Shown here: piece after piece, positions 14,803 through 36,886 of the stretch
Numbering within the stretch: the first letter of the stretch is position 1
Layout of the letters: every line of letters begins with the position of its first letter
IMG/VR virus record: IMGVR_UViG_2648501437_000025
DNA length: 38,438 bases
Source of the DNA: a virus
Taxonomy: Duplodnaviria; Heunggongvirae; Uroviricota; Caudoviricetes
Strand: one strand, 5' to 3'
Notes under the pieces: generated by a model
What the model saw: the letters and a program-made list of their open reading frames with translations, nothing else
Databases searched by the model: none
What the model was told of the DNA's origin: nothing
Program-made: the position numbers and the translations under genes

Positions 14803-16260
14803 TTAGGAGCGCCAAAAAAAACCTGAAAACAATATAATAACAGGATAAATTTCAAGGCGACCAAGAATCATAGCTATGCACATTAAATATTTTGCAATGT
14901 CATTAAGCACTCCGAATGACGATGCAGTAGCCCCAAAACCTAATCCCATATTATTAATACATGCAGCCACTGTTGCAAATGATGTAAGAAAATCATATCC
15001 CATACCATTTAACACCAGTATAAAAAACACCGTGAAGAGAGTATAAAGAAAAAAGAAACTCCATACAGACCTCATTACACGATCTGTAACTATCTTCCCT
15101 CCTACATTTACACTCAACAACGCTCTGGGATGAGAAAGCTGGTTTATCTCGTGTTTGCTTTGTTTGAAAAGTATAAGAAATCGAAGTGACTTAATTCCAC
15201 CACAAGTTGAACCTATACATCCCCCAAAGAAACTTGACAACAGCAAAAACACTATCGTGTGCGTGGGCCAGTTTGCATAATCCTGCGTAGCTAAACCATT
15301 ATCAGTGAGCATGGAGCTGGCAAGAAAAAACGAATGAATAAAACTTCCAGGCAAGTCATACATACCTATATGCCAGACCTGGAAAGAGGTAACAATGATC
15401 ACCCCTAAGGCTATTAACAGAAAGAAACGAAGTTCAATATCTCTGATTAAAGGTTTTAACGTTTTCCTGCTAATAACAATATACCAAAGGGTGAAGTTGA
15501 AAGCCGATAGCAGGGAAAAAGAACCAGCCACCAGCTCAACCAAATAGTTATTAAAATATCCGATACTCTCGCTATGAGTTGAGAAACCACCAAGCGAAAC
15601 TGTGGATATCCCGTGACAAATAGCATCAAACAAAGGCATTCCTGCAAGTCTATAACAGACAATACAAGCAATACCTAATAAAGAATAAGTTATCCAAAGT
15701 GTCCGTGACGTATCGGCCAGGCGGGGAGTAAGTTTGTCATCCTTAAATGGCCCTGGCATTTCTGACTGATAAAGCTTTGCACCACCAATACCCAATAATG
15801 GCAATACAGCAACCGCCAGAACAATAACTCCTAAACCACCTATAAAATTTAACTGCGACCGATAGTACAAATATGCCCGAGGTAATGAACTAACATCATC
15901 AATTACAGTTGCTCCTGTTGTTGTTATTCCAGAAACCCCTTCAAACAGAGCATCAATGAACGTTAAATTAAGTTCTGAGTCAATCCATAAAGGGAATGCA
16001 CTAATAACAGAAAACAAAATCCAAAACATTACAATTATAATAAACCCATCACGGGTACGTAATTGAATGCCAGATTTCTTAGTTGTATACCACGCTCCGC
16101 CACCAATGCAAAAAAATATAACGAAAGTTATAAAGAAAACGAACAGGCTTTTTTCTTTATAAAACAATGCTACAACCATTGGTGGCAACATTGAAAGACT
16201 ATAGAGCCAAACCAGGAACCCACACATATGAGTAACAACTCTTACATGAGATGTATTCAT
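14803..16260 (-). CDS. trkG: Trk-system potassium uptake protein TrkG (TrkH family)
   Basis: Polytopic membrane protein with repeated Gly-rich selectivity-filter-like segments (GITTTGATV, GGLGV, GLGFGAT); AT-rich gene between the lysis cassette and packaging genes as in K-12 Rac; ATG at 16260 (MNTSHVRVV...). Confidence 0.9.
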   Translation of the reverse strand: MNTSHVRVVTHMCGFLVWLYSLSMLPPMVVALFYKEKSLFVFFITFVIFFCIGGGAWYTTKKSGIQLRTRDGFIIIVMFWILFSVISAFPLWIDSELNLTFIDALFEGVSGITTTGATVIDDVSSLPRAYLYYRSQLNFIGGLGVIVLAVAVLPLLGIGGAKLYQSEMPGPFKDDKLTPRLADTSRTLWITYSLLGIACIVCYRLAGMPLFDAICHGISTVSLGGFSTHSESIGYFNNYLVELVAGSFSLLSAFNFTLWYIVISRKTLKPLIRDIELRFFLLIALGVIIVTSFQVWHIGMYDLPGSFIHSFFLASSMLTDNGLATQDYANWPTHTIVFLLLSSFFGGCIGSTCGGIKSLRFLILFKQSKHEINQLSHPRALLSVNVGGKIVTDRVMRSVWSFFFLYTLFTVFFILVLNGMGYDFLTSFATVAACINNMGLGFGATASSFGVLNDIAKYLMCIAMILGRLEIYPVIILFSGFFWRS

Positions 16261-16397
16261 ATCTAAATATTCTTTCAATTATAACCACCTTGCTGCAATA
16301 TTATGATTATACTGTATAAAATTTAACTCCTCTTAGATCTTACTTCACTGTTCCTTATGAAACAATCATCAAAATGAATCATATTGTAGTTAAGATT

Positions 16398-20225: not shown

Positions 20226-20477
20226 CTAACAGGATGCTCTGACTCGCAATTCATCCAGCAGTTTATCATTTCCCATAATGTCACTTACCCTCATCGGTAA
20301 AAAAATTGCCTTTCGACCATTACGATACATCATTGATTTTGGGGTTTCAGGGAAGTAATCCATTTCGACTATAACTGACAGGTCATCACGACGTATGACT
20401 GCGTATTTGCTACTAAATAGTTTCTTTATTTTTTCCACGATGCCTCCAGGTTTATAAGTACAAAAGGTTATATCCAC
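20226..20477 (-). CDS. Hypothetical 83-aa protein in an AT-rich segment
   Basis: ORF in a visibly AT-rich stretch between the Doc cassette terminator and the nin genes; no recognisable motif. Confidence 0.4.
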   Translation of the reverse strand: MDITFCTYKPGGIVEKIKKLFSSKYAVIRRDDLSVIVEMDYFPETPKSMMYRNGRKAIFLPMRVSDIMGNDKLLDELRVRASC

Positions 20478-20623
20478 ATAGAGACAAAAATATTAATCTG
20501 AAAAATATTTATTTCACGTCGTATATTTGATTGTTTAATGTGCAGGTACAATGACTTTTATTTTTGGCTGTGTATATAATCAAATATATGGTTATTTTTC
20601 ACCCTGCATATTCAGCACGCAAC

Positions 20624-20643
20624 AAAAAACCCGCCGAAGCGGG
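20624..20643 (-). terminator. Intrinsic terminator (cUUCGg-loop hairpin + U-run) after the Doc cassette
   Basis: Plus strand aaaaaa-cccgc-cgaa-gcggg; the same 22-nt element recurs at 21464. Confidence 0.6.
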
Positions 20644-20661
20644 TTTTCATTAGAAGCATCT

Positions 20662-21156
20662 TTAGTTTTGCTGTTCTATTTTAAGCTTGATAGTTTCATA
20701 CAAAACAATAGTTGCGCCTGTTTTACATAATTCCCGACTGTCATACGCACGAGACCAATAACACAACCAATTTTCAAGCTCTTCTCGTGTATAAATTTTA
20801 CAGGCCAGCCCCTCAGCCATCTCCACAACTTCATCGCCTGGTGCGGTTAATTCGTATCCATTTAACAATAAAAAAACCGCACCAGCCATCATTGCTGTGC
20901 GCTTGTTTGCATTGGCAAATGGATGATTCTGAATCAGACTTTCAATCAATACCGATGCCAGTACAAACATGTCGTTGGTTTGCTCATACCATCGAACCAT
21001 ACTGGGACGAGACTGAGAAGAACTTAAATTATCAACACTCAGCACACCAACAGGTTCATCTGGTGTTTGAAGCTCAATTAAAAGGCGATTAATTTCAGTA
21101 AGATCATCAACCGAAAGGTAGTGCACTCCTTCAACAATCTCAGCCATAGAGCACAA
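20662..21156 (-). CDS. doc: Doc-family toxin (Fic/Doc fold)
   Basis: Contains HPFANANKRTAMMAG, a variant of the Fic/Doc HxFx(D/N)(A/G)NKR active-site motif; preceded by a small partner ORF. Confidence 0.8.
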   Translation of the reverse strand: MCSMAEIVEGVHYLSVDDLTEINRLLIELQTPDEPVGVLSVDNLSSSQSRPSMVRWYEQTNDMFVLASVLIESLIQNHPFANANKRTAMMAGAVFLLLNGYELTAPGDEVVEMAEGLACKIYTREELENWLCYWSRAYDSRELCKTGATIVLYETIKLKIEQQN

Positions 21157-21167
21157 TACCCATCATT

Positions 21168-21344
21168 ACACTTTTGAAAGATCTTCCATTGCCTTCTCGT
21201 AACGAGAAAAACCGAAATCGAAAGCATTTTTCACCTGCTCACGATGAGTGCAATTTTCATCGATAGCCGGGCGCGGAGCTGCCACAACGCTTTTATCGCG
21301 AGGGGGAATAGTCAATCGCGGGTGTTTTTTTAGTGCGTAGCTCA
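21168..21344 (-). CDS. Putative antitoxin partner of Doc (58 aa, family not recognised)
   Basis: Small ORF (MSYALKKHPRLTIPPRDKSVVAAPRPAIDENCTHREQVKNAFDFGFSRYEKAMEDLSKV) with AAGGG RBS, ending just upstream of the Doc start; below the 60-aa track cutoff. Confidence 0.5.
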
Positions 21345-21463
21345 TTGGTGTACCCTTACTTCTCCGTCCTGTTCTTTAACAAAAATTAAGTCAATACAAA
21401 ATTAGTCAGGCTAATGTTGTTAGCATAGCCTAATACCAATCGTATTCACAACCACAGTACGTG

Positions 21464-21483
21464 AAAAAACCCGCCGAAGCGGG
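21464..21483 (-). terminator. Intrinsic terminator (cUUCGg-loop hairpin + U-run) at the 3' end of the hok locus
   Basis: Identical core to the 20624 element: aaaaaa-cccgc-cgaa-gcggg. Confidence 0.6.
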
Positions 21484-21553
21484 TTAAGTGCGGGTGCGTT
21501 GAGGATGCCTGACATATCAGAGGTGGCGGGAGATTACTCTCCCGCCCGGTCTC

Positions 21554-21709
21554 TTACTCCTCAGGTTCGTAAGCTGTGAAGACAGCGACCTCCGTCTGCC
21601 CGGTTCGGATTCGTACCTCGCAGAGGTCTTTCCTCGTTACCAGTGCCGTCACTATGACGGTTAAACAGATGACGATCAGGGCGACTAACATCGCCTTTTG
21701 CTGCTTCAT
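21554..21709 (-). CDS. hok: Hok/Gef-family type I toxin
   Basis: MKQQKAMLVALIVICLTVIVTALVTRKDLCEVRIRTGQTEVAVFTAYEPEE is near-identical to E. coli HokC/Gef as I remember it; AAGGAG RBS. Confidence 0.85.
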   Translation of the reverse strand: MKQQKAMLVALIVICLTVIVTALVTRKDLCEVRIRTGQTEVAVFTAYEPEE

Positions 21710-21766
21710 AGCCTGCATCTCCTTGACCTTTCGGTCCGTAAGAGGCAATCTATATGTGACGAGCAT
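21554..21766 (-). CDS. mok: Mok (in-frame N-terminally extended reading frame over hok)
   Basis: 70-aa ORF MLVTYRLPLTDRKVKEMQAMKQQ... matches the MokC-style extension; GAGG RBS upstream of the ATG at 21766. Confidence 0.6.
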   Translation of the reverse strand: MLVTYRLPLTDRKVKEMQAMKQQKAMLVALIVICLTVIVTALVTRKDLCEVRIRTGQTEVAVFTAYEPEE

Positions 21767-21806
21767 ATAGGGGCCTCACTTCGATTTATAGTCGGGTGGG
21801 GCTTTT
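21745..21806 (+). ncRNA. sok: Candidate Sok-like antisense RNA (approximate bounds)
   Basis: Plus-strand hairpin gcctcac...gtggggc followed by TTTT at 21773-21806, antisense to the mok translation-initiation region; 5' end not determined. Confidence 0.35.
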
Positions 21807-21949
21807 ATCTATCTGCCGTTGGTGTTCATGCCCGAGGCTGATAGCCTCAAGCACCCGCAGCAATTTTACTTAATTTCCCTTTAGTCAGAAATCATTTTTT
21901 AATCTATCTTGAAACAAGACTCAAATTCACAAATAAATTAAATATAAAA

Positions 21950-22852
21950 CTAAAACTCTATTTTTTGTGCCGGACGTGAGTTTAAAATCCAGCACTCCTG
22001 ATGTGTATGATGTATAGTTAGTAGATTGTCAAACTGAGATTTCTTAGCGTCAAATTCCATTTTATTTTTAAAGTCAACATTAAAATCTCCTGTTTCAATA
22101 GAGGCAAGAGCTTTGAGTCTATTGCATTCAGCATGCATATCAATTATATCGCTAAAACCTTCGCTTTTAATTCTTTTATTAACATAGTTCGTATAAATCC
22201 CTGCATGTTTATAAGAATCCATCACAGTGTATAATCCATCACCATCAATATCTGTAGGAGATGACATCCATTTAAAAACATGTAGAAGAAAAATATTTGC
22301 TGACCAAGGAAACACCACCCCATTAGCAAATGTTTCTGAAGTACCAGAACTAAGACTTTCATTAAGATTAGTCGCACCGATTAAGATCACATCGGTTTCA
22401 AACTCGTTCCGTTTACCAGCACCTACAAAATTAAAGGTCCCGGCATAGCATTGCCCAAGATAAACAACAGCATTTTTAAGATTTGGGGCTTCCTTCAAAG
22501 CCTTCAGTAATTGGCTTGGTGGGATAGGTTTCTGTGCATCAAGTCCATGAGGGCCACCATGACCAGTTACAAACATAACTATGTTATCATATGTATTATC
22601 ATTTAAGTCATTAAAAAAAACTGCTGATGGTTTTGACTTAAAAGGATATCTAGAAGCGAGTGCAAAAGCACCATCGTAATTCATTGAAGGGCTATCTATA
22701 TATATCGAAATATCATCTGGATTGATACCTGCCTTTTCGAGGCACATCACACCAAAGACTAAATCGACAACATGACGAAATTCCACTGCAGCTTTCGAAC
22801 AAGGCAAAAACATCACCCACCTTGTGCGTTCAGACCTAAGACTCATATACAT
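21950..22852 (-). CDS. Clan CD (legumain/caspase-like) cysteine peptidase-like protein
   Basis: Motifs NIVMFVTGHGGPHG and NAVVYLGQCYAG, 37 residues apart, follow the hydrophobic strand + His-Gly ... hydrophobic strand + Cys layout of legumain/caspase catalytic dyads; AT-rich gene; alternative start at 22813 with AAGGTGG RBS. Confidence 0.55.
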   Translation of the reverse strand: MYMSLRSERTRWVMFLPCSKAAVEFRHVVDLVFGVMCLEKAGINPDDISIYIDSPSMNYDGAFALASRYPFKSKPSAVFFNDLNDNTYDNIVMFVTGHGGPHGLDAQKPIPPSQLLKALKEAPNLKNAVVYLGQCYAGTFNFVGAGKRNEFETDVILIGATNLNESLSSGTSETFANGVVFPWSANIFLLHVFKWMSSPTDIDGDGLYTVMDSYKHAGIYTNYVNKRIKSEGFSDIIDMHAECNRLKALASIETGDFNVDFKNKMEFDAKKSQFDNLLTIHHTHQECWILNSRPAQKIEF

Positions 22853-22877
22853 CCTTGGTGGTTCGAAATGTACTTAA

Positions 22878-23174
22878 TTAAAGATTAAAATTATATCCAG
22901 AGAACACTGTATTACTGAGTGATGATGGTCTTGGTAAATCACTAAAATAAAACACTTCATCAATACTCAAGTGTTCGGTAATTTTTGTGGGCATAATCTG
23001 CCCTCGCTCATTCATGCCAAAGATATCATTACCGGTTTTTAGAAAAAATGTTATTTCCACGGTAATCCTGTAACTATTGGATTTGAAAAGCATCCATTGC
23101 CCAAGATTCACACACTCTTTTACTGCATCAGAGGTATCAGGCAACTCAGAAGATTGTAACCCCGTGAATTTCAT
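22878..23174 (-). CDS. Hypothetical 98-aa protein, first gene of the AT-rich island
   Basis: ORF with AAGGA RBS 8 nt upstream of the ATG at 23174; 25 nt upstream of the peptidase-like gene; no recognisable motif. Confidence 0.5.
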   Translation of the reverse strand: MKFTGLQSSELPDTSDAVKECVNLGQWMLFKSNSYRITVEITFFLKTGNDIFGMNERGQIMPTKITEHLSIDEVFYFSDLPRPSSLSNTVFSGYNFNL

Positions 23175-23302
23175 TTTCAGTCCTTATAGCTGCTTATGTA
23201 CTGAATTGCACTAAGCAACCTTTAATACCATTGCGACGAACAACAACCGTGTGATCGCTACCACGACCACACTGAAAATATAACTTTACATATTCATTAT
23301 CG

Positions 23303-23386
23303 TCAACCCCAGCGGCAAATCGAATACACCACCAGCGCCACCGCCATCGCAATTCCTACCGTAGTGAATGCCTCAGGCCAGGTCAT
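23303..23386 (-). CDS. 27-aa hydrophobic micro-ORF, translationally coupled
   Basis: MTWPEAFTTVGIAMAVALVVYSICRWG; ATG overlaps the stop of the upstream gene (ATGA) and is preceded by AGGAGGTGA at 5-nt spacing. Confidence 0.4.
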   Translation of the reverse strand: MTWPEAFTTVGIAMAVALVVYSICRWG

Positions 23387-23778
23387 TGATTCACCTCCTG
23401 CTCAATATTTTTCAGATCATTTTCCGCATACAGTATTGCTGTCCTGGCTGCTCGTAACCGGGCTTTGGCATTTTTCTCTTCACGTTCAAGTTTTGCCACA
23501 GCTTCACGAAGAGCATCCCGCTTTGCATAGAGTGATTTAATCTCAGTCACGATGTTTTCACCGTTTCTCGCACGGTCAAGAACAAGCTCGAACGGATCTA
23601 AAGCCAATCCACACCGTTTGCAGGTAATCGTACGATTCACTTCTGAAATTGTTGTACGGATATGCTGACAGCATTTTTGCTCGACACTTTTTTCGTCGGT
23701 TATCACAACGTTGAGGAGTCCTTCCTCCTCTGATTTTGGCTGCACCAGGGTGATAACATTGTCGCCTTCATTTTTCAT
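23383..23778 (-). CDS. Zinc-ribbon + coiled-coil protein (paralog A)
   Basis: CCQH...CKRCG...DPF followed by a charged coiled-coil (EREEKNAKARLRAA); shares this architecture with the ORF at 25529..25927. Confidence 0.5.
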   Translation of the reverse strand: MKNEGDNVITLVQPKSEEEGLLNVVITDEKSVEQKCCQHIRTTISEVNRTITCKRCGLALDPFELVLDRARNGENIVTEIKSLYAKRDALREAVAKLEREEKNAKARLRAARTAILYAENDLKNIEQEVNQ

Positions 23779-36510: not shown

Positions 36511-36705
36511 ATGCGGTATGAAAAAGTCAAACCATGCCCTTTTTGTGGTTGTCTATCAGTAACGGTAAAAGCCATTTCAGGATATTACCGCGCGAAGTGT
36601 AACGGATGCGAATCCCGAACCGGCTATGGTGGAAGTGAAAAAGAAGCACTCGAACGATGGAATAAACGAACCACTGGAAGTAATAATGGAGGTGTTCATG
36701 TATAA
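36511..36705 (+). CDS. ralR: RalR (Lar) restriction-alleviation protein / type I toxin
   Basis: MRYEKVKPCPFCGCLSVTVKAISGYYRAKCNGCESRTGYGGSEKEALERWNKR... matches Rac RalR from memory. Confidence 0.75.
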   Translation: MRYEKVKPCPFCGCLSVTVKAISGYYRAKCNGCESRTGYGGSEKEALERWNKRTTGSNNGGVHV

Positions 36706-36886
36706 AATTACCGCCACTATTGAAAAGGAAGGTGGCACTCCTACTAACTGGACAAGGTACTCAAAAACAAAATTAACCAAATCAGAATGCGAAAAAATGC
36801 TCTCAGGTAAAAAAGAAGCAGGCGGTTCCAGAGAGCAGAAAGTAAAACTGATAAATTTTAATTGCGAGAAACTTCAGTCGTCGTGA
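36698..36886 (+). CDS. ydaC: YdaC-like protein
   Basis: MYKITATIEKEGGTPTNWTRYSKTKL...; ATG overlaps the ralR 3' end, preceded by GGAGG. Confidence 0.55.
   Translation: MYKITATIEKEGGTPTNWTRYSKTKLTKSECEKMLSGKKEAGGSREQKVKLINFNCEKLQSS

Follow-up and report, generated by a model that had tools for sequence, protein, structure and literature searches.

Cysteine peptidases of family C13 (the legumains and their relatives) have been described chiefly in eukaryotic lysosomes, in plant vacuoles and as part of the glycosylphosphatidylinositol (GPI)-anchoring machinery. For the peptide asparaginyl ligases (PALs) and the GPI transamidase subunit GPI8/PIGK, the substrate presents an Asn or a small residue that is followed by a very short C-terminal leaving peptide. 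Bacterial gasdermins are freed by an adjacent caspase-like protease, and some other clan CD enzymes are calcium-regulated. Clan CD is defined by a catalytic His (in a His-Gly motif) that precedes the catalytic Cys, each following a hydrophobic strand, and the C13 enzymes have P1 specificity for Asn or Asp (PMC12445089). In the literature that we found no role for C13 enzymes in bacterial mobile elements is described. Here we analyse a two-gene cassette in a Rac-type lambdoid prophage of Escherichia coli, contained in IMG/VR record IMGVR_UViG_2648501437_000025 (38,438 nucleotides (nt); this whole stretch of DNA is called the window below). The cassette encodes a small protein of 98 amino acids (aa) and, downstream of it, a homologue of the legumain-type peptidases. 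The pair is a real, conserved, horizontally mobile and uncharacterised two-gene module.

The peptidase and its small partner

The larger protein had been assigned to clan CD in a first-pass annotation of the window, from the motifs FVTGHGG and VVYLGQCYAG; both are confirmed, and a distance of 37 residues separates His98 from Cys135. Alignments and a predicted structure give good support to this assignment, and specifically to a peptidase homologue of the legumain type (C13). The protein matches the Pfam family PF01650 (Peptidase_C13) at 27.4 bits against a cut-off of 22.8 (expectation value (E) 2.9e-6), over residues 83-140 only. Most of its homologues have no precomputed match to PF01650, and the automatic annotation of some of them reads 'Peptidase C13 family protein' or 'caspase family protein'. 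The C13 fold assignment is thus already hinted at in automatic annotations, while the pair itself is uncharacterised.

An AlphaFold model calculated with a 114-sequence alignment has a mean local confidence (pLDDT) of 95.5 and a predicted template-modelling score (pTM) of 0.91. In a Foldseek comparison of this model with the PDB the first 32 matches are all C13 enzymes (E 9e-10 to 7e-7), including Arabidopsis and human legumain, jack-bean asparaginyl endopeptidase, butelase-1, VyPAL2, OaAEP1 and a GPI transamidase subunit. These are followed by caspases, MALT1, C11 peptidases and a metacaspase. The first-pass annotation had named two outcomes that would speak against its assignment, i.e. a fold outside clan CD and a His/Cys pair that is not conserved. 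The predicted fold is that of clan CD, and both H98 and C135 are invariant in 114 homologues.

The same is true of R26 and G99, and at least 90% of these sequences have H27. H98, G99 and C135 are also invariant in an alignment of 28 homologues. In the model His98-Gly99 follows the strand 90-95, and Cys135 follows the strand 127-132. HMMER searches of the PDB sequences align 'RTRWVMFL...EFRHVVD' of the prophage protein to 'GTRWAVLV...NYRHQAD' of plant legumain, and the stretch from His-Gly to Cys aligns too. Arg26-His27 therein match the Arg-His of the legumain S1 pocket, which lies after strand 1. The protein is thus predicted to be a cytoplasmic enzyme with an intact Arg-His/His-Gly/Cys active site. 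It forms a new branch of the legumain family in bacteria. Two further elements are conserved outside the active site. Residues D201, D203, G204 and D205 are invariant in a loop that resembles the DxDxDG calcium-binding loop; if the loop does bind calcium, as its motif alone suggests, the enzyme may be calcium-regulated. Past the catalytic domain the model has a long helical hairpin (residues 210-250 and 257-282), and a C-terminal motif, HQECW.LN..PAQ, is mostly invariant.

The peptidase gene is closely tied to the small one. A profile search was made of six-frame open reading frames (ORFs) in 55 sequences (54 loci and the window), 50 of which have upstream DNA. In 49 of these 50 the small gene directly precedes the peptidase gene on the same strand, with gaps of -13 to +61 nt. 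The lone locus without it, from Caballeronia (L027), has a frameshifted peptidase gene. The description of the 98-aa protein as the partner of the peptidase, made earlier for this one locus, therefore holds as a strict linkage. The pair is found in Gamma- and Betaproteobacteria (Enterobacterales such as Escherichia, Klebsiella, Raoultella, Kluyvera and Enterobacter, and further Vibrio, Shewanella, Pseudomonas, Xanthomonas, Burkholderia, Bordetella, Pandoraea and Duganella), and also in environmental metagenomes; some of the hosts are Shiga toxin-producing (STEC) or enterotoxigenic (ETEC) E. coli. The ratio of non-synonymous to synonymous substitution (dN/dS) is ~0.09 for both genes, with non-synonymous differences (pN) of 0.14 for the small protein and 0.16 for the enzyme. 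Both genes are under equally strong purifying selection.

The small protein is acidic and of alpha/beta type, with no membrane segment. A core of one helix and five strands is predicted at modest confidence, and both termini are predicted to be disordered, including the region of the motif described below. Profile and structure searches with both proteins, which the first-pass annotation had recommended, were informative for the large one (legumain-type C13), and for the small one gave an unannotated PHROG in the family library (phrog_30138) and no structural match. No gasdermin or other known effector fold was found for it. A weak match of the small-protein profile to a Gram-positive surface protein of 1081 aa with five Cna-B-like repeats (P0232; E 8e-5, in five stretches) was put down to the repeats, as a probable artefact; isopeptide bonds between Lys and Asn are formed in Cna-B domains.

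The N-terminal half of the small protein is strongly conserved (LP.....VKECVN.GQW.LF), and its N-terminus, M-K-[F/L], is nearly invariant. Near the C-terminus there is no variation at P83, S85 and N88 and hardly any at L86 and S87; S-[L/F]-S-N occurs in 28 of 28 distinct partner sequences. What follows the Asn is by contrast variable. The tails of peptidase-linked partners have 3-17 aa and cannot be aligned even between relatives that are 70% identical, and in 56 representatives of the family the tail has a median length of 6 aa (range 1-15). The Asn tail looks like the recognition site of the enzyme itself, and its pattern lends specific support to the small protein being a cleavage substrate. 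A sequence from Pseudomonas reidholzensis (L026) was considered as an exception to the motif and rejected, for it has a +1 frameshift in a T7 run and the other frame reads ...SDIPRPQSLSNSFP*. In this locus (L026:7900-7960) the adjoining peptidase gene is intact, and the frameshift of the partner can be explained by an error of sequencing or by a natural knock-out that affects the tail.

Remote members of the small-protein family extend this comparison. Exhaustive searching of 1.84 billion representative proteins with the profile gave only 93 representatives, nearly all of 87-115 aa. The residue at the position of Asn88 is Asn in 56 of them, Glu in 8 and Asp in 5. For seven remote members the downstream gene was looked up. 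Those with Asn or Asp (L059, L062 and L063, where L062 has the Asp) are followed by a legumain-like gene that overlaps or lies a few nt away, the overlaps in remote pairs being 4-10 nt. Of the Glu members, L056 and L057 are followed with a 4-nt overlap by a gene for a two-helix membrane protein of 90 aa, with no legumain-like gene in the locus, and L058 and L060/L061 are followed by other short genes that are not legumain-like. Over all loci, a peptidase accompanies Asn or Asp in 53 of 53 cases and is missing with Glu in four of four. The Asn is therefore tied to the enzyme. The partner has Asn or Asp in loci with the enzyme and Glu in loci that lack it, which points only indirectly to a P1 specificity of the prophage enzyme for Asn or Asp.

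We note some further properties of the Glu-type loci. In the two high-GC metagenomic contigs (L056:3014-3624 and L057:4001-4644) the small homologue reads ...PPSLSE and then continues into a longer tail with a Cys-Cys pair. The combination of small homologue and two-helix membrane protein appears to be a two-gene module related to that of the prophage. In L061 (positions 261-1686) the Glu-type homologue lies two genes upstream of a gene with a metallo-beta-lactamase fold that matches the anti-Pycsar Apyc1 family, and this neighbour suggests the context of a phage genome. A single small family with alternative downstream genes would fit the pattern of a regulator with swappable effectors.

A proposed substrate-like lock and its alternatives

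The established part of the above comprises the fold, the catalytic residues, the strict linkage, the purifying selection, the mobility of the pair and the correlation of Asn or Asp with the peptidase. We propose, with a probability of roughly 0.4, that the pair is a dedicated enzyme-ligand couple, in which the small protein is a substrate-like lock on a peptidase effector within a cassette of the toxin-antitoxin or abortive-infection kind. The tail of the small protein would bind the peptidase with Asn88 placed in the S1 pocket, the small protein acting as an antitoxin-like lock and the peptidase as the effector. The lock might be lost by cleavage after Asn88, by turnover of the small protein or through a phage trigger. 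The freed peptidase would then stop growth by cleaving proteins of the cell or of a phage on the C-terminal side of Asn or Asp, and the module would act as an addiction or anti-phage abortive-infection cassette that is carried as a prophage moron. We favour this reading because the swappable downstream genes, the gene order, the mobility and the patchy distribution are all as in toxin-antitoxin and many defence systems.

A number of observations weigh against it. Antitoxins usually drift faster, and the small protein has evolved at the same slow pace as the enzyme. Its conserved core (LP...VKECVN.GQW.LF) points to some role besides that of blocking an active site, and no DNA-binding domain was recognised in it by family and fold searches. 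The contrast between Glu and Asn may stem from only one or two evolutionary events. Moreover, the P-x-S-L-S motif is kept in homologues that have no peptidase partner, and part of it therefore serves something else. The acidic S1 residues of human legumain, which we take to be Glu187 and Asp231, appear not to be conserved in the prophage enzyme, so that specificity for Asn is not assured. The association of the pair with defence genes is modest, amounting to a handful of 132 neighbouring ORFs, and a tblastn search with the peptidase gave no match in 50,697 sequenced phage genomes and 72,556 plasmids.

The conserved Asn followed by a tail free in both length and sequence could also be explained by a discarded leaving group. 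The small protein would then itself be the effector, a pro-protein switched on when the peptidase removes the tail after Asn88, by the same logic as for the bacterial gasdermins. The order of the genes (substrate first, protease second) and a small-protein core that is as conserved as the enzyme would both suit such a maturation. We nevertheless think it unlikely, given that the 98-aa protein looks soluble, lacking both a membrane segment and a known effector fold, that the peptidase has no visible sensor domain to time the activation, and that the Glu homologues keep the motif with no protease partner. A different fate of the same bond is suggested by the closest structural relatives of the enzyme, which include butelase-1, VyPAL2, OaAEP1 and PIGK/GPI8. 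Here a thioester would be formed at Asn88 and the 88-residue protein passed to an amine, either on a phage or host protein (i.e. tagging in the manner of ubiquitin or sortases) or at the N-terminus of the partner itself, giving head-to-tail closure into a circular protein. The tails of only 1-4 residues in many family members are akin to short leaving peptides, and the nearly invariant M-K-[F/L] N-terminus and the disorder of both termini would be in keeping with transfer. However, no acceptor was identified and the neighbourhood suggests no target, the Glu-type homologues work without such an enzyme, and ligase or hydrolase character cannot be read from the sequence by the searches and model used here. 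Overall, transpeptidation appears distinctly improbable, whichever amine is considered.

The effector could alternatively serve the prophage in its own cycle, the peptidase cutting a host or rival-phage protein (in counter-defence, takeover or superinfection exclusion) with the small protein as its chaperone or timer. The cassette does lie within a delayed-early transcription unit, where its genes run in the same direction as the neighbouring ones and neither side has a clear terminator, 26 copies of the pair are on predicted viral contigs, and one Glu-type small homologue is beside the Apyc1-like gene. On the other hand the sequenced phage genomes lack the peptidase, and a search of BFVD returned only a giant-virus ORFan and no phage relative. 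Copies are also present in non-phage islands beside integrases or resolvases, and the distribution is sporadic, not lineage-wide as a core phage function would be. A role of this kind seems to us rather unlikely. Lastly, an enzyme gene directly preceded by that of a small acidic alpha/beta protein, in hosts some of which are STEC or ETEC, recalls the type III secretion effector proteases and chaperones of other STEC prophages. Several of the genera that carry the pair are not known to have type III secretion. The occurrence of the pair in Klebsiella, Raoultella, Kluyvera, Enterobacter, Duganella, Pandoraea and environmental metagenomes led us to set the idea of a secreted virulence effector aside; the site is moreover not an effector exchange locus, and in the enzyme, whose conservation extends to the last residue, no secretion signal is evident. 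This explanation is very improbable indeed.

The cassette, its boundaries and its surroundings

The limits of the cassette (Table 1) are taken from comparison with a prophage of E. coli O157:H7 (L055), because this carries both flanks (21482-21882 and 23307-23401) with only 18 bp between them. The insert so defined has 1424 bp and contains the two minus-strand genes. Its GC fraction is 0.359, against 0.464 for the whole 38-kb window, and is the lowest of all 1424-bp windows, which bears out its earlier description as an AT-rich island. Among 5,426 complete E. coli genomes one has the cassette at 99% identity. A variant that is ~74% identical in DNA sequence occupies the same slot at full length in 10 further genomes and in part in 2, and the flanks alone are matched in more than 1,700. 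The cassette is thus a rare, clean indel at a prophage accessory site.

Table 1. Positions in the window of the cassette and of the sequence elements discussed in the text.
Feature	Positions	Strand	Basis
Whole cassette, AT-rich insert relative to the empty site	21883..23306		Comparison with L055, GC scan
Legumain-type (C13, clan CD) cysteine peptidase gene, 298 aa	21950..22846	-	Pfam, PDB sequence matches, AlphaFold, Foldseek
D201-x-D-G-D-G206 codons, loop between helices	22235..22252	-	Invariance; loop position from the model
Catalytic Cys135 codon, motif L-G-Q-C-Y-A-G	22448..22450	-	Invariant; aligned to the legumain catalytic Cys
Catalytic His98-Gly99 codons, aligned to legumain H-G	22556..22561	-	Invariant in 114 homologues; after strand 90-95
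Arg26-His27 codons, aligned to Arg-His of legumain N-Y-R-H-Q-A-D	22772..22777	-	HMMER alignments, 114 homologues
Small partner gene, 98 aa, phrog_30138 (function unknown)	22878..23174	-	Core of one helix and five strands, disordered termini
Variable tail T89-L98 codons, proposed leaving group or prime-side residues	22881..22910	-	Tail comparison
P83-S-S-L-S-N88 codons, invariant C-terminal motif; Asn88 the proposed P1	22911..22928	-	Homologue alignment
Upstream non-coding region, 128 nt	23175..23302	-	Promoter-like site, stem-loop and AAGGA ribosome-binding site before the small gene

The first-pass annotation had listed the two ORFs as encoding 98 aa and 300 aa, the latter at 21950..22852 (minus strand) and beginning 25 nt after the small gene. 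The ORF positions are confirmed, and it is the start of the peptidase gene, and with it the gap, that has to be corrected. An AAGGA ribosome-binding site at 22852-22856 overlaps the first ATG of the 300-codon ORF and is 5 nt before the third codon, and the aligned homologues mostly begin at the Met of the third codon (with MSL, MGL and similar; P0001 has 298 aa). The true start is therefore almost certainly the ATG at 22846. This gives the 298-aa protein, separated from the small gene by 31 nt.

The non-coding region upstream of the small gene is likewise as previously described. It has a stem-loop at 23272-23249, and a promoter-like site, TTGACG-18-TATATT, at 23306-23277 with 10 of 12 matches to the consensus. 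The promoter-like element is kept in the 74%-identical variant at the same slot and is not kept in other lineages. A scan for consensus promoters found 9 sites where 5.2 ± 2.2 are expected, a density near chance that makes for weak evidence. We do not claim an independent promoter for the cassette, since the site is a consensus match only, at this near-chance density. The region is bounded on its far side by an unlisted ORF of 27 codons (MTWPEAFTTVGIAMAVALVVYSICRWG) at 23303-23386 (minus strand) that would encode a single hydrophobic helix. In the sequence ATGA its ATG shares bases with the stop codon of the phrog_1621 gene, while its own stop codon overlaps the -35-like TTGACG. The O157:H7 prophage has the same small ORF at its empty site.

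Read in the direction of transcription, the cassette comes after DUF551, the phrog_1621 gene and the 27-codon ORF. Its small gene and then its peptidase gene are followed by hok/sok, by a 59-aa gene with doc and finally by the nin-like genes (DUF1367, YbcO and DUF1133/Q). The cassette had been placed between the nin genes and hok. The hok neighbour is correct and the nin side is not; the other flank is the DUF551/phrog_1621 block, and the nin-like genes are beyond hok and doc. The window also carries RalA small RNA (sRNA), sok and three tRNAs as prophage markers, together with a TrkH-family gene, the S21 holin, lysozyme, Rz, DUF1133/Q-like, YbcO and DUF1367 genes.

The cassette adjoins two further toxin-antitoxin loci of its prophage. 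The hok/sok type I locus at 21554-21856 (minus strand), recognised from the Rfam sok family (99.9 bits) and a 70-aa ORF containing Hok, abuts the boundary at 21883. A Doc-family toxin locus is at 20662-21345 (minus strand; TIGR01550 with E 4e-35, and Fic/DOC in Pfam), and the 59-aa gene that precedes doc (phrog_2208, no known function) is probably its antitoxin. The near-identical SC418 prophage bears the cassette and lacks the pair of 59-aa gene and doc. A Fic-domain gene is also present ~1.3 kb upstream of the cassette in two Burkholderia loci (L008 and L009), which may be a coincidence. Downstream of doc there is a short, very AT-rich stretch (20250-20700, GC 0.31-0.34) with no convincing ORF. 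The RalA antitoxin sRNA at 36704-36882 (minus strand; Rfam RF02694, 212 bits) marks the RalR/RalA system and a prophage of the Rac type. The TrkH-family potassium transporter gene at 14803-16278 (minus strand; 491 aa, Pfam E 1.8e-143) ranks second among the AT-rich blocks of the window, and is reminiscent of trkG of the Rac prophage.

Elsewhere the pair occupies a variety of mobile settings. In Pseudomonas it is at a prophage end, beside an integrase. A Vibrio prophage copy (L006) is two genes from a PDC-S26 candidate, the Burkholderia copies are in islands with an integrase and a resolvase, in one of which (L024) a Drt8 reverse transcriptase is 88 bp away, and the L063 pair is beside a type ISP restriction enzyme. 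Other neighbours are methyltransferases, a PrimPol and phage structural genes. We also observed a 50%-identical pair in E. coli (L013-L016, L044, L045 and L054) on the opposite strand from flanking ClpP-capsid fusion genes, in an element with a D5-type primase and DUF1441. This element may be a capsid-forming satellite or a small phage.

The pair had been put forward as lying outside any described system, and the searches agree. With the PADLOC-DB v2.0.0 (2023) models the peptidase and the remote pairs are unmatched and the small protein has a chance-level match only (E 0.028), and the peptidase also has no match in the PHROGs and NCBIfam libraries. Literature searches for C13 or legumain enzymes with anti-phage defence, prophage or immunity, and for the RefSeq accessions, found no description of the pair or of a role in protection against phage. 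The mobility, the patchy occurrence at prophage accessory sites and the occasional proximity to defence genes are suggestive only of a role in defence or abortive infection; a toxin-antitoxin or addiction function, or one that serves the phage, fits equally well.

Comparison with described systems

The finding of a compact C13 enzyme linked to a tiny co-encoded protein that shows the preferred residue of the family on a flexible tail leads to a hypothesis that is both specific and testable, in which a single cut site and a single catalytic cysteine are at stake. Should the pair function in toxin-antitoxin or abortive infection, it would add a new class of protease to bacterial immunity, and the parallel between bacterial and eukaryotic cell-death proteases would extend from the caspases to the legumains (i.e. 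the plant vacuolar processing enzymes). If instead the enzyme is a ligase, this would be the first C13 ligase chemistry in prokaryotes and a new way of marking proteins during infection, and such enzymes might be a source of small, cytoplasmic, Asn-specific ligases for biotechnology. The pairing of the small family with either a peptidase or a two-helix membrane protein offers a lead to a wider, undescribed set of modules.

Compared with legumain itself, the prophage enzyme has the common alpha/beta fold, with 9e-10 as the best E among the top 32 PDB matches, and its Arg-His, His-Gly and Cys stand in the order and the context that they have in legumain. Legumain cuts after Asn or Asp, and the prophage partner offers an Asn at the candidate P1 position (Asp in the remote L062 pair). 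The relationship is nevertheless distant, with 12-18% identity, a TM score of about 0.45-0.50 and a Pfam match confined to the segment given above. Unlike legumain, the prophage enzyme is bacterial and cytoplasmic with no evident signal peptide, and has G-Q-C in place of E-A-C at the catalytic cysteine and the invariant DxDGDG loop. Its last 100 residues form the long helical hairpin and the conserved HQECW.LN..PAQ.IEF end, and the structure of the legumain prodomain is different from this hairpin.

The ligases butelase-1, VyPAL2 and OaAEP1 and the transamidase GPI8/PIGK are relatives in the C13 fold among the PDB matches of the enzyme. Their substrates may be likened to the S-L-S-N of the partner with its 1-17 following residues, a likeness at the level of sequence only. 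These enzymes are eukaryotic and function in the secretory pathway or endoplasmic reticulum, whereas the putative substrate of the prophage enzyme is a single dedicated co-encoded protein of 98 aa.

Bacterial gasdermins with their caspase-like protease, Craspase with Csx29 and the caspase-like Thoeris systems also place a clan CD protease beside a presumed substrate on mobile or defence loci, and in the gasdermin systems a short C-terminal segment is removed, as in the cut proposed here. By contrast, the prophage enzyme belongs to C13 and not to C14 or CHAT, and has no sensor or repeat domains, the partner has 98 aa and no gasdermin fold, and there is no match in PADLOC.

The type II toxin-antitoxin systems likewise have a small gene upstream of a larger one and co-directional with it, here with a gap of 31 nt and in the remote pairs with overlaps of 4-10 nt. 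They are also mobile and patchy, the prophage copy being near hok/sok and doc, and a single small family is again found with different downstream partners. The only locus without the small gene (L027) has a broken enzyme gene, which is anecdotal. Unlike a type II antitoxin, the small protein shows no domain recognisable as DNA-binding and keeps to the slow evolutionary pace of the enzyme, and C13 peptidases are not known among the toxin families. The model for the proposed lock comes from the legumain family itself. The complex of legumain with cystatin E/M (PDB 4n6o) is sixth among the Foldseek matches and has a protein inhibitor at a C13 active site, where the contact of cystatin with legumain runs through an Asn loop. 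On this model the small protein would present Asn88 to the prophage enzyme in a comparable manner.

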